This document shows positions 47,798-63,277 of a DNA stretch of 64,000 bases, piece by piece. The stretch is taken from IMG/VR virus record IMGVR_UViG_2839610755_000002; one strand, given 5' to 3'. Made by a program: the position numbers and the translations under genes. The number at the start of each line of letters is the position of its first letter. Position 1 is the stretch's first letter. This stretch comes from a virus (lineage: Duplodnaviria; Heunggongvirae; Uroviricota; Caudoviricetes). The notes beneath the pieces are model-generated. The model was not told the DNA's origin. It searched no databases and worked only from the letters and a program-made list of their open reading frames with translations.

Positions 47798-47891
47798 GTT
47801 CACAGATAAAACACTCTCCAGGAAACCCGGGGCGGTTCAGGCAGTTTGTTTTATTGCGTGCCTTCACGCGCCTTTGAAGGGAATTTCATCG

Positions 47892-48677
47892 GTGATTCTG
47901 AATAATCAGGAATGGCTACTGGCCATCTTTAAGAAAAAAGGTCTTACTCCAACCGGTAAGCTGGAATTTGCCACTATTGATGGCATTGATTCGGCGCTCG
48001 CACAGGCTTTAAACGAAGCGTTCGACTCACAAGTTGTCAGCTTTAATGATCGCATTAACCAGTCGTTCTGGGAGTTCCTGAAACGCACACCAAGAGATCG
48101 CATAACGCTCGGCACTTTTAGTGATGTGAAGGAGTGGTTGTCGTCATTTGAAGCCGATCGCGCCGGGCGCAAAGATACAGCCTCTGCTGGCCCGGTAAAT
48201 AAGCTGGCAATGCCGCTTGTGAATCTGTCTCGTTCTCCCGCGTTTTCAATTTATGAAGGTGAACTGTGCCGGGATAATTACGATGAAGGGCATGTCACCA
48301 ATGAAAATGATGAGATTGAAGCCCTGGTATCTACTATCCCTTTCTCACTGGAATATTCGCTATGGATAGCCAGTGACGAGAAGGAATCTCTTGGGATGGT
48401 TACAACTGCATTAGCATTCTGGCTACGAATGTATGCCAGCCTCGGGCAGGCATCTTTCACTCACATTGCCAATGTCGGCGGTTATGAGATACCGGTTACC
48501 TGTTACATAGAAGGGCAAAAATCAATCGCATTTCAGGATCTGACCACCGGCACCGCCGACAACAGGCTGTTCGCGGTTGGATTGAACCTCACCGTTGTGG
48601 CGGAACTTCCTATCCTGGCTTATATGCAGCAAACCACCGGCACCATAACGGTAAAAGCGAAAATTCTGGAGGAATGA
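47892..48677 (+). CDS. hypothetical protein (start uncertain)
   Basis: GTG start downstream of the IS; the ORF-table Met start is IS-derived sequence. Confidence 0.4.
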
Positions 48678-48678
48678 G

Positions 48679-49695
48679 ATGGCCACAAAGACCACCACAG
48701 CCCCGGAAACTGATTCAAAACGCACTCAGCTATTCCTGCAATCTGTTTCAATTGGGCAGAACGAAATCCCTCGCGAAATGATCGTAGGATGTACCTATGT
48801 CGAACCTGGGGAGCTATCTGGTCCCCAGCTTATGCTCATGGTCAGGGATTCAACGGCTTACGTGGTCAATAAGCTGGGGGTGAAATTTGGGACAATAATG
48901 ACAGTTTCACTTGGTGATCCGGAAGGTCATGGCGGCATCCTCTTCTCGGAAGAGTTCTTTGTTCTTAAAGCGCCGCGCAAGGACGATACTGTACTGATTT
49001 ACGCGTTTAGTAACCCGGTGCGGTTATTAAAAGTTCCGTCCACCAGCGCACAGTATTTTGTTGATAAGCCACCATCAGCCGTAGTTTCCTCTCTTGCCCC
49101 TGGTCTGAAGGTAAATGCTGACTCATTCAGAAAAACATCCACATACCACCTAAATGTTGGAGAAAAACCGACCAAGGTATTGCAGGAGATAGCCCGGGAT
49201 ACCGGTTCTATGTGCTGGGCATCCAGGGGGACGATCAATTTTAAAAGTATGGAAAAAATGGCAAACGCCGCTCCATCGCTTACTTATGAGTCCGCCAATC
49301 CCAACACATCCGGATTTACAATTAGTCAGTTCAACATCCTGAATGCCGATTATGAATACCAGCGCCGCCACAATTACAGAATGGCCAGTTATGACATGAC
49401 CAAAGGTGTGGTTTACTCAGGTAACCAGGAAGACCCCATTAAATTTACGAGCAATCCCGATCCTACCGCGCTGGCGAACTACAACAAATTCATTCTCCCC
49501 CGCCTCGATATGCTGGTGGAAGGAAATGCCGCGCTAACTCCGGGTACGACGCTGAAAATTGTCGTGCATAACACGGCAGGTGACGGAGAACTCGATGAAT
49601 CTATCCCTGACAAAATGATAGTGATGTCCGTGACTCATTTCGAAGACCGCTTCCGTTTTGTCAGCCGAGCACAGTTAGGAGTAGTGAATGGGTAG
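48679..49695 (+). CDS. hypothetical 338-aa protein
   Basis: ATG with GGAGGAATGAG RBS; coupled to neighbours. Confidence 0.55.
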
Positions 49696-50320
49696 TTTGA
49701 CAGGGAAGTATCGGGCTGTAGTGGTAAGCGTCGATGACCCTAAAGGTCTGATGCGTACGCAAATACGCGTTGTCGGCATGATGGATGGGCTACCAGATGC
49801 CTCATTGCCGTGGGCAGAAGCCATATTGTCCAATGCAAACACGTTTTCGCCATTTCTGCCCGGCGATAAAGTATGGGTAGAATTTCCCTACAATGGGGAT
49901 TCTCGATGGCCATTGATAATCGGTTATGCACAGGATGCATCCGGTGGCGCTCCCAATGTGCCGCCTGAAGCGTCAGGACAAGGTGAAGGCTATGTACCGC
50001 CTGAAGTCGAAGGTGCACCAGCACAACCATCAACCAGCGCCAAAAAAGACTTTATTTCGTCGCGGAACGGACTAATGGAGGTCCGGACGGCGGGCGGAGC
50101 CTGGGCCGTTACGCACTTGAAAAGTGGAACAACAATCGGGTTCAACGAGGCCGGGGAGTTATATGCCATTTCTCAAGGTCCGGCATTCATCTCTTCCGCA
50201 GGAAATCTCGATATAAAGTCAGGCGCGGATGTCGCCCTGAAGGCGGGGGGAAGTATGGCGATAGAGGCCAGCGGGAATCTATCCATAAAAGCCGCTCAAG
50301 TCTCTGTTGATAAAGCGTGA
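49688..50320 (+). CDS. baseplate spike-like protein (gpV/gp5 OB-fold N-terminus, Gly-rich C-terminus)
   Basis: N-terminal [22 protein letters not shown]...PGDKVWVEF resembles gpV-type spike proteins. Confidence 0.45.
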
Positions 50321-50365
50321 TGGAGCGAGGATTGGTTGATATCCTCCACCTCCTGAAGAAATTAT

Positions 50366-50391
50366 GCCCGGCATCAACCGGGCATTTTTTT
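50366..50391. terminator. rho-independent terminator
   Basis: GCCCGG-CATCAA-CCGGGC followed by ATTTTTTT. Confidence 0.6.
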
Positions 50392-61898: not shown

Positions 61899-61914
61899 TA
61901 TTTATTAGAGCAAT
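61898..61914 (-). promoter_or_regulatory. C1 operator upstream of the uhr-hrdC-dmt operon
   Basis: Minus strand reads ATTGCTCTAATAAATAT. Confidence 0.6.
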
Positions 61915-61995
61915 TTTGCGATAAGTAAACGCCATACAGACCACAAATAACCTAAGTTAAAATAACGAAAATCAGAGCAAATAATTGGTGATGGC

Positions 61996-62280
61996 GTGGC
62001 AAGCATTGCAACAAAAGACAGCATTTGTTCGGGGCACGGAGGATTCCCATCCAGGCCTCCTGTAGAGAGTGAACCACTACTTAAAGTCAACGGAGTCGAA
62101 GTGTTAGTTGATGGTAAGCAATATGCACAGCATACCGATGGAAACAGTACGCACGGTGGGCAAGCTATATCAACCAGGGCATGGTTTACCGTCAATGGTA
62201 AAGGGATCGTATGCGTTGGTGACCCTGTTTCATGCGGATCTACCGTAGCGTCCGGAGACGGCCTGGTTCAGGTAAGTTAG
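61996..62280 (+). CDS. small Cys/Gly/His-rich protein, PAAR-like
   Basis: 94 aa with paired His and Cys clusters (SICSGHGG...HTDGNSTHGG...VCVGDPVSCGS). Confidence 0.4.
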   Translation: MASIATKDSICSGHGGFPSRPPVESEPLLKVNGVEVLVDGKQYAQHTDGNSTHGGQAISTRAWFTVNGKGIVCVGDPVSCGSTVASGDGLVQVS

Positions 62281-62288
62281 GAGATATC

Positions 62289-63077
62289 ATGCTGGAAAAA
62301 GACTACCAGTTATCCGCATATAAAAAATTGGCCGCCGCCGGTGGGATGAAAACACCTGGTGCCATAACATCGGCACGAAACAGTGCTAACACAGCAAAAC
62401 TGCTTGCAGAAGAATTGACCGGATTAATTCTGGATACAATTGTCTATCCCGACACTATTACCAGCTATGTTTCAACGATCAGAACAACCACAACCGGCTT
62501 AACGAACATTGGAGAACTGGCAACTAAGCACGCGGACCTGTTGGCTGGTTATGCAGATCTGTCAATGCTGCTTCAACTCGATATTGGTTGGGATGTTTAC
62601 TGCCGTGCTAATGAGCGAGAAGTTTCAGAACTGCCGATCTCTATTGCCATTGGTGATGTGAATATTACTAAATCGCTTGAGGACGCTGTTAACGCGCTTA
62701 ATACATCAAGTTTAGTCGCTGCAATGGGGGAGATTAACCAGGCCCTTAACACTGGCTCAGAAAGCTCGTCAGGCTCTGGTTCAGGCGGCGGCACTGCCAC
62801 TCCCCCACCAGCACTAACAGAAGAGCAAATTGAATCTCTGAAAGTAGCAACTGAACAGTTTGGGGTTGTTTTCAACCAGACAACAGCACCCACAACTGCG
62901 TTACAACAGCAGTATGAACGAGCGAATGAAAGCGCCAACGTAGCCATAACTGCTTATAACCATGCTATCGGTACCGCGCTTGCGGAAGCATCAGCAAATA
63001 AGGCCAGCACAGCCAGCGCAGTCGCCGCTTTGGTTCCTGATTCTGTTCTTGATGAATTAAACAAAGCGGCACGGTAA
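62289..63077 (+). CDS. hypothetical 262-aa protein (Ser/Thr/Ala-rich)
   Basis: Start MLEKDYQ; low-complexity GSGSGGG linker. Confidence 0.5.
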   Translation: MLEKDYQLSAYKKLAAAGGMKTPGAITSARNSANTAKLLAEELTGLILDTIVYPDTITSYVSTIRTTTTGLTNIGELATKHADLLAGYADLSMLLQLDIGWDVYCRANEREVSELPISIAIGDVNITKSLEDAVNALNTSSLVAAMGEINQALNTGSESSSGSGSGGGTATPPPALTEEQIESLKVATEQFGVVFNQTTAPTTALQQQYERANESANVAITAYNHAIGTALAEASANKASTASAVAALVPDSVLDELNKAAR

Positions 63078-63116
63078 CAAAGGACTTCATTGATAATTTT
63101 TCTTCAGGAGGAAGAC

Positions 63117-63277
63117 ATGTCATTCTTTTCTACGTTAAAAACAGCTTTGTCTTTGAAGGAGAAACTTGCTGCTACTGGTGTTCTTGTTCTGATTTGCGCA
63201 CTTGTTGGTGCTGGGTTTGCATGGGAACGTCATCAGCTAAAGCAAGCCATGGAGAAAATTGGCAGTCTTGATCAGGC
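63117..63277 (+). CDS. small membrane protein gene, 3' end interrupted by IS insertion
   Basis: CAGGAGGAAG RBS; TM segment; reading frame runs into the IS end at 63278. Confidence 0.45.

Follow-up and report, generated by a model that had tools for sequence, protein, structure and literature searches.

Two IS629 copies bracketing 15.4 kb of a P1-like phage-plasmid of Escherichia coli O157:H7 are probably separate simple insertions

Two copies of the insertion sequence (IS) IS629 lie in opposite orientations in a 64,000-nucleotide stretch of DNA from the virus record IMGVR_UViG_2839610755_000002 (hereafter the window), and they bracket 15.4 kb of phage backbone. The window corresponds to positions 32001–96000 of SCKH01000006.1 (GCA_004100305.1; 101,123 bp), and the overlaps are base-identical. 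SCKH01 belongs to strain C1-010 of E. coli O157:H7, which carries stx2c and was isolated from feedlot cattle; its genome was assembled with Canu from PacBio Sequel reads of 3–40 kb at 477x (PMC8046923). Based on gene order, the replicon is a P1-like phage-plasmid (Punavirus). It is colinear with P1, and RepA (Rep3), ParA, and ParB are encoded downstream in the source contig and in the relatives.

Copy 1 is a complete element of 1,310 bp on the plus strand (46530–47839), delimited by direct reading of the sequence and by its match to annotated IS629. Comparison with phage records gives 100% identity across 1,310 bp to the annotated IS629 of many Stx-converting phages. It contains orfA (46584–46910, plus strand; Pfam HTH_Tnp_1) and orfB (46907–47797, plus strand; Pfam rve/HTH_21/rve_3, DDE type), which overlap each other as in the IS3 family. 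The ALIL frameshift pseudoknot of the IS3 family is found inside copy 1 at 46865–46981 (Rfam RF01497, 121.5 bits). The termini are imperfect inverted repeats of the TG...CA type. The element starts with TGAACCGCCCCGG, and its left and right ends are TGAACCGCCCCGGAAATCCTGGAGA and TCTCCAGGAAACCCGGGGCGGTTCA, respectively. The flanking sequences are GGTAGGC on the left and GGCAGTT on the right, containing a 3-bp target-site duplication (TSD), GGC, at 46527–46529 and 47840–47842. Both sides of this TSD are seen in the sequence and in an alignment overlap described below, and the left one also in the single GGC of the empty site.

Copy 2 begins with its right inverted repeat (IRR) end at 63278 and lies on the minus strand. 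Only 723 of its 1,310 bp are inside the window (63278–64000), where it was detected by an inverted repeat scan and in the sequence itself. In SCKH01000006.1 the copy is whole, corresponding to window-equivalent positions 63278–64587, or 587 bp beyond the window end. There its reverse complement matches copy 1 exactly, with 100% identity. The flanks in the source contig are ATCAGGC on the left and GGCTGTT on the right. The left GGC is at 63275–63277, as supported by these flanks and by the single GGC of the empty site, and the right GGC is at the window-equivalent 64588–64590, beyond the window. The repeat scan of the whole window reported one inverted pair, 47117–47840 and 63277–64000, of 724 nt with 100% complementarity. 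This pair is bounded only by the window end, and the actual repeat unit is the whole IS of 1,310 bp. Base 724 of the match (47840/63277) lies in the flanking DNA, outside of the IS, and agrees by chance. The size and identity, orfA and orfB with the frameshift signal, the termini, and the TSD all fit IS629, to which both elements can be assigned (IS3 family). The initial annotation, which was made from the window, had proposed that two inverted IS629-like copies bracket positions 47840–63277 and that the second copy begins at 63278. Both the coordinates and the sameness of the two elements are borne out by the source contig.

Neither site is occupied by an IS in the plasmid pF1273-3 from E. 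coli O157:H7 (CP038378.1; 99,810 bp). The window from 1 to 46529 is colinear with pF1273-3 with 3 mismatches, and the window from 47840 to 63277 (15,438 bp) is aligned to it as a single colinear block with 1 mismatch. These two alignments overlap by exactly GGC (72179–72181 of pF1273-3). Both empty sites were reconstructed as 80-mers and sought as exact matches in relatives. The empty 80-mer of site 1 is found exactly in pF1273-3, pTX376-2, and phage P1. That of site 2 is found exactly in pF1273-3, pTX376-2, and three more contigs (L006, L007, and L010). Each empty site has a lone GGC, where the window and the source contig have GGC directly repeated on both sides of the IS. The subtraction of 2 × 1,313 bp from 101,123 bp leaves 98,497 bp, which is the exact size of the sister contig ABQHAF010000019.1. 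This argues for exactly two insertions into an otherwise unaltered circle.

Each copy is flanked by a direct 3-bp duplication of its own, and it is therefore very probable that IS629 was inserted twice, independently and by simple insertion, into the resident P1-like phage-plasmid of strain C1-010. The TSDs of IS629 are reported to be 3–4 bp (PMC3271280). In this process, IS629, as an IS3-family element of the copy-out-paste-in type, would have generated a separate 3-bp duplication at each event, and the DNA between the copies would have been left as unaltered P1 backbone in its ancestral orientation. The inverted pair is probably an incidental by-product that could serve as a passive substrate for RecA-dependent inversion and not as a functional unit.

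The initial annotation had also suggested that the two copies could act as a composite unit. If so, the two ISs and the intervening DNA would move, or would have arrived, together. Two identical ISs do flank the segment. Moreover, all four flanks are GGC on the plus strand, so that the outer flanks match each other too, and the inner ones also match their outer partners; the TSDs alone do not discriminate between the two histories. The composite unit is set aside because IS-free relatives, including P1, have this 15.4 kb between the very flanks seen here, and because both empty sites occur as exact 80-mers among the relatives. The content is also core P1 genes, not accessory cargo. In the IS3 family (IS911 and IS3), the circle junction pairs IRR with the left inverted repeat (IRL); the outer ends of a composite unit here would both be IRL. 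A composite transposon is extremely unlikely on these grounds.

The perfect identity of the copies and their residence on one replicon might suggest that one was derived from the other by intramolecular replicative transposition of the cointegrate type. Such an event would split the TSDs and invert the segment, and neither is observed. The identity itself is uninformative, as the IS629 copies of O157 phages are likewise 100% identical, and an origin of this kind can be given almost no probability. An assembly artefact is hardly credible either. Under that explanation, sub-populations with one insertion each were merged, or an IS was misplaced. The approximately 20 copies of IS629 per O157 genome can mislead assemblers (PMC3271280), and the C1-010 assembly is unfinished, with this contig apparently counted by its authors among the chromosomal scaffolds (PMC8046923). 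However, both junctions are base-perfect with 3-bp TSDs, and the total length is exactly the backbone plus 2 × 1,313 bp. At 477x, a 1.3-kb IS is readily crossed by reads of 3–40 kb, many of which should also reach across 18 kb.

The occupied sites were not seen elsewhere in the collections searched. The site-2 junction has no exact match in the RefSeq complete E. coli genomes, IMG/VR, or the GTDB representative genomes. The search with the site-1 junction returned only the O111 plasmids p95NR1A and p95JB1A; the insertion in p95NR1A is a different one, 78 bp away, and p95JB1A shows the same two-piece match to the query. These junctions are absent from PLSDB, INPHARED, and the complete RefSeq E. 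coli genomes, and the exact pattern scans of IMG/VR and GTDB were also empty. By exact protein look-up, the truncated product of gene 7, which is disrupted by copy 1, is encoded by one public contig, SCKH01000006.1, and the fusion product of ppfA and the IS at copy 2 has no match. Insertions at these gene 7 and ppfA sites of a P1-like plasmid are absent from the other public records searched, and this kind of event is already known.

Both target sites share the sequence AGGC(A/T)GTT on the plus strand (46523–46529 with 47840–47846, and 63271–63277 with the contig beyond the window), despite the opposite orientations of the ISs. The IS of p95NR1A is also preceded by GGC. The common target context is probably a coincidence, since only two sites are compared, the ISs are in opposite orientations, and IS629 is reported to have no sequence-specific target (PMC3271280).

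Copy 1 is inserted in gene 7, for tail stability. The gene is 729 nt long and is entered at 666 nt; the stop codon is now TGA, the first three bases of the IS. The remaining frame (45864–46532, plus strand) has 222 of the 242 codons that are intact in pF1273-3 and P1, and its translation lacks the C-terminal 20 residues. The product belongs to the tail protein family phrog_1906 (E 4e-135). Gene 24 starts 50 nt downstream of copy 1. The P1 annotation gives the operon a single late promoter, LP26, which precedes gene 26. Genes 24, 6, and 5 are now 1.3 kb farther from LP26, behind copy 1.

Copy 2 is inserted in ppfA, for an Rz-like inner-membrane spanin (i-spanin). The small membrane-protein gene starting at 63117, which the initial annotation described as interrupted, is this gene. 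Translated from the ATG at 63117, its frame breaks off after codon 53 and continues into 13 IS-encoded codons (63117–63317, plus strand). Intact PpfA has 115 aa in pF1273-3 and belongs to the Rz-like spanin family phrog_89 (E 2e-18). The gene mlp, which overlaps ppfA and extends downstream of it, corresponds to the spanin/lipoprotein family phrog_30284 (E 2e-56). The second insertion thus knocks out ppfA, the gene for the i-spanin, and would part the outer-membrane spanin (o-spanin) gene mlp from upstream transcription.

The genes repA and parAB, and phd/doc elsewhere on the plasmid, are untouched. The insertional damage appears confined to lytic-cycle functions, namely the tail gene 7, the supply of the baseplate operon, and the i-spanin. 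As judged from the sequence, the element probably persists as a plasmid, because its replication, partition, and addiction genes are intact. As a phage, it probably has defects in tail assembly and in the final lysis step.

Several points weigh against this interpretation. Copy 1 is co-oriented with the tail operon, and the promoter/terminator scan found no terminator-like site on the plus strand at its 3′ end. Read-through to genes 24, 6, and 5 is possible for these reasons. Spanin defects are often conditional. A consensus assembly is blind to any inverted fraction of molecules. IS629 in stx2 of strain FRIK1275 is not fully polar, and functional phage is still made (PMC7430833). Overall, the scan of the IS and its flanks is uninformative, with three weak terminator-like sites where 1.5 would be expected and nothing resembling a promoter.

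Gene order was compared between the window from 43000 to 64000 and the P1 reference by BLAST. Eight blocks are colinear with P1, all on the plus strand and in ascending order. Seven of them show 96.6–99.2% identity; the eighth is the tRNA region (56481–56792), with 82% identity. The order is as in P1: genes 26-25-7 with the first IS followed by 24-6-5, then dbn-ban-trnI, upl-plp, trnT-trnA, dmt-hrdC-uhr, and upfC-upfB-ppfA with the second IS. Beyond ppfA, the source contig continues with mlp, upfA, oriR/repA, and parAB. The bracketed segment (47840–63277; 15,438 bp) is native backbone of the P1 type in its ancestral orientation, the same orientation as in pF1273-3, Logan contig L006, L007, and P1.

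The initial annotation had pointed to the distance of 12 kb between a gpV-like gene and a PAAR-like gene as a possible trace of rearrangement. This spacing proves to be ancestral. The distance from gene 5 to upfC is already 8.6 kb in P1, and it is 11.7 kb here. The additional approximately 3 kb is mainly due to an ant module (1.7 kb) and an intein in Dmt (1.0 kb), and not to IS activity. Comparison with P1 and with the IS-free sister plasmids shows identical gene order.

An inversion of the segment that has already occurred can be rejected for this assembly. Recombination between the copies would have flanked each IS with GGC...GCC and reversed the segment. Here the segment is oriented as in the relatives, and the TSDs are matched.

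The idea that identical inverted repeats can mediate inversion, also raised in the initial annotation, is sound as a general principle, as inversions in O157 genomes illustrate (PMC7430833, PMC8743559). The IS pair could then be a flip-flop of 15.4 kb, with both orientations coexisting in the population. In the flipped state, genes 24-6-5 would be antisense to LP26, and the ban and dmt operons would point the other way relative to oriR. The inverted repeats are 1,310 bp long and 100% identical; inversions of O157 chromosomes driven by homologous recombination of such repeats include one with a repeat of only 174 bp at a breakpoint (PMC7430833, PMC8743559). Inversion would also break no essential plasmid gene, with both breakpoints being within the ISs. 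However, the Canu consensus from reads of 3–40 kb at 477x (PMC8046923) shows the ancestral orientation with matched GGC on both sides. The site-1 junction is known from one public contig, none was found for the site-2 junction, and no assembly with the alternative orientation is present in the collections searched. There is no sign of selection or regulation. Coexistence of both orientations as such a flip-flop is very unlikely. Flipped molecules are plausible as a low-frequency neutral by-product in a RecA+ culture, and not plausible as a functional switch. It can be speculated further that the arc, reversible by RecA, works as a stochastic switch between a state that can still make virions, by read-through from LP26, and a state of plasmid only, with 24-6-5 in antisense. 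Such a switch is very unlikely.

The C-segment of P1 (Cin/cix) is likewise a segment bounded by inverted repeats. Unlike the C-segment, the segment here has no dedicated invertase and no short crossover sites, and its repeats are whole transposable elements. The approximately 20 genes that it contains are unrelated to each other, and nothing points to the existence of two states. A site-specific invertible element of the Cin/Gin/Hin type is also not indicated by the annotation, as neither the bracket nor the adjoining DNA has an annotated invertase and the boundaries are IS629 ends.

Two simple insertions of IS629 are in line with what is known of this element and of P1-like replicons. IS629 is the most abundant IS of O157, and 62% of its copies are in prophages or prophage-like elements (PMC3271280). 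In O157:H7 prophages and plasmids, the same element (IS3 family, IS51 group) generates 3-bp TSDs and inactivates phage genes; the case here shows no difference in kind. The P1-like phage-plasmids pF1273-3, pTX376-2, and RCS47 have the same gene order through upfC-upfB-ppfA-mlp-upfA-oriR-repA-par. In shared blocks, the identity is 97–99% to P1 and 99.99% to pF1273-3. Compared with P1, the extra components here are a c4-icd-ant module, an SPFH gene in place of tciABC, a fourth tRNA, the Dmt intein, and the two IS629 copies. The relatives also have IS629-family elements at other sites. In pTX376-2 one is inserted in hrdC, and in pF1273-3 an element with 95% identity lies beside a baseplate gene.

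The insertion in p95NR1A (O111; CP021340.1) is closest in position. Its IS629-family element (2909–4221 of NZ_CP021340.1) is in the same operon as site 1. This IS directly adjoins the first codons of dmt, beside hrdC, and approximately 12.7 kb is missing, from genes 24, 6, and 5 through dbn, ban, and the tRNAs to almost the whole of dmt. The deletion thus removes nearly the same DNA as is bracketed here and illustrates the outcome of IS activity in this part of a sister plasmid, whereas in the window nothing is deleted or rearranged. Because p95NR1A exists without approximately 12.7 kb of it, the bracketed region can be considered dispensable for plasmid life.

P1-like phage-plasmids have been documented to decay into plain plasmids as genes are lost or inactivated (PMC10879196), and the two insertions fit this course. 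They may be one more case of IS629 eroding lytic functions of a prophage-type element in O157:H7 with plasmid maintenance spared, and they have little import beyond annotation. The two IS629 sites could act as strain markers. Homology with the approximately 20 chromosomal IS629 copies could permit cointegration, for which the IS copies would be a passive substrate.

For annotation, the consequence is that the 101-kb contig of C1-010 is a P1-like plasmid and not a chromosomal prophage scaffold. The paper on C1-010 gives pO157 as the sole plasmid of the strain, along with an "intact prophage" measuring up to 101.1 kb (PMC8046923). Judging by the matching size, this prophage appears to be SCKH01000006.1, counted among the chromosomal scaffolds. 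The contig carries oriR/repA/parAB and ends 16 bp past parA, and its start is thus at the parB start codon. This arrangement suggests a circularised contig that had been rotated to begin at a gene.

The contents that the initial annotation had listed for the bracketed segment, ban, a tRNA cluster, dmt with an intein, an antirepressor-like gene, and structural genes, are all present; the tRNAs are four in number. The P1 annotation, Pfam, and PHROGs together account for every gene of the region. Downstream of copy 1 are the baseplate gene 24 (47892–48677, plus strand), gene 6 for tail length (48679–49695, plus strand), and gene 5 for a gpV-like hub/spike protein (49688–50320, plus strand). They are assigned by the P1 annotation and correspond to PHROGs 1767, 1390, and 430, respectively. 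Gene 5 is also matched by Phage_base_V (E 1e-4), and its match to phrog_430 has an E-value of 1e-51.

An extra immI-like module (50391–51896) follows, between gene 5 and dbn. It is a gap in the alignments to P1 and to Logan contig L006 (50317–52029). On the minus strand, it contains ant (50391–51425; Pfam ANT, E 7e-32), an icd-like gene (51422–51643), the C4 antisense RNA (51691–51776), and the a1b1 targets of this RNA (51844–51896). Rfam families RF01695 and RF03163 are matched in the C4/a1b1 part. The module is a direct repeat of a second module at 21935–23280, located 28.3 kb away, with 93–98% identity in patches of 370–450 nt. Recombination between these direct copies would delete 28 kb. 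In pF1273-3, there is a third module of the immI type, outside of the window.

Next are dbn (52023–53021, minus strand), identified from the annotations of pF1273-3 and P1, and ban (53021–54385, minus strand) for a DnaB-like helicase, identified from the same annotations and Pfam DnaB and DnaB_C. The tRNA region extends from 54666 to 56933 on the minus strand, and Rfam detects four tRNAs in it as a whole. The first is a trnI-type tRNA with the anticodon CAT (54666–54741; ARAGORN, Rfam). It is followed by an SPFH/Band_7 gene (54769–55596, minus strand; Band_7, E 1e-30), which sits where P1 has tciA-tciB-tciC and represents a cassette replacement. The genes upl and plp (56005–56628, plus strand) are assigned by the P1 annotation. 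The other three tRNAs, for Thr, Tyr, and Asn, are at 56687–56933 on the minus strand (ARAGORN). Between the Thr and Asn tRNAs, P1 has no other tRNA; here, the fourth one, tRNA-Tyr with the anticodon GTA (56767–56853, minus strand), is 87 nt long by ARAGORN and scores 41.9 bits with the Rfam tRNA model.

The 1,013-aa product of dmt (57606–60647, minus strand) is a bifunctional C5/N6 DNA methyltransferase (Pfam MethyltransfD12 and DNA_methylase). It contains a LAGLIDADG intein of approximately 340 aa (nucleotides 59394–60416, minus strand; Pfam Hint_2, LAGLIDADG_3, and Intein_splicing). The insertion point of the intein is the catalytic-cysteine motif in the C5-methylase half, exactly between GTP and CQ. 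In BLASTP against P1 Dmt (754 aa), residues 1–78 and 419–1013 are aligned to P1 residues 1–78 and 78–754, and residues 79–418 are the insertion. The deposited annotations name this intein-bearing Dmt merely "Dam family methyltransferase". The cassette-like differences from P1 (the module, the SPFH gene, the fourth tRNA, and the intein) bear no relation to the ISs.

The genes hrdC/rdgC (60644–61549) and uhr (61542–61826) follow on the minus strand and are identified from the annotations of pF1273-3 and P1. On the plus strand are upfC (61996–62280), for a PAAR-motif protein (PAAR_motif, E 8.5e-6; phrog_281, E 2e-30), and upfB (62289–63077), which is assigned by the P1 annotation.

A dispersed motif of approximately 17 nt, AAWTTATTAGAGCAAT (repeat family D3), is found at 4574, 18393, 18869, 23617, 38393, 51951, and 61889. 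We take it to be the reverse complement of the operator consensus of the P1 C1 repressor. The copy at 61889–61928 is located where P1 annotates Odmt, upstream of uhr-hrdC-dmt.

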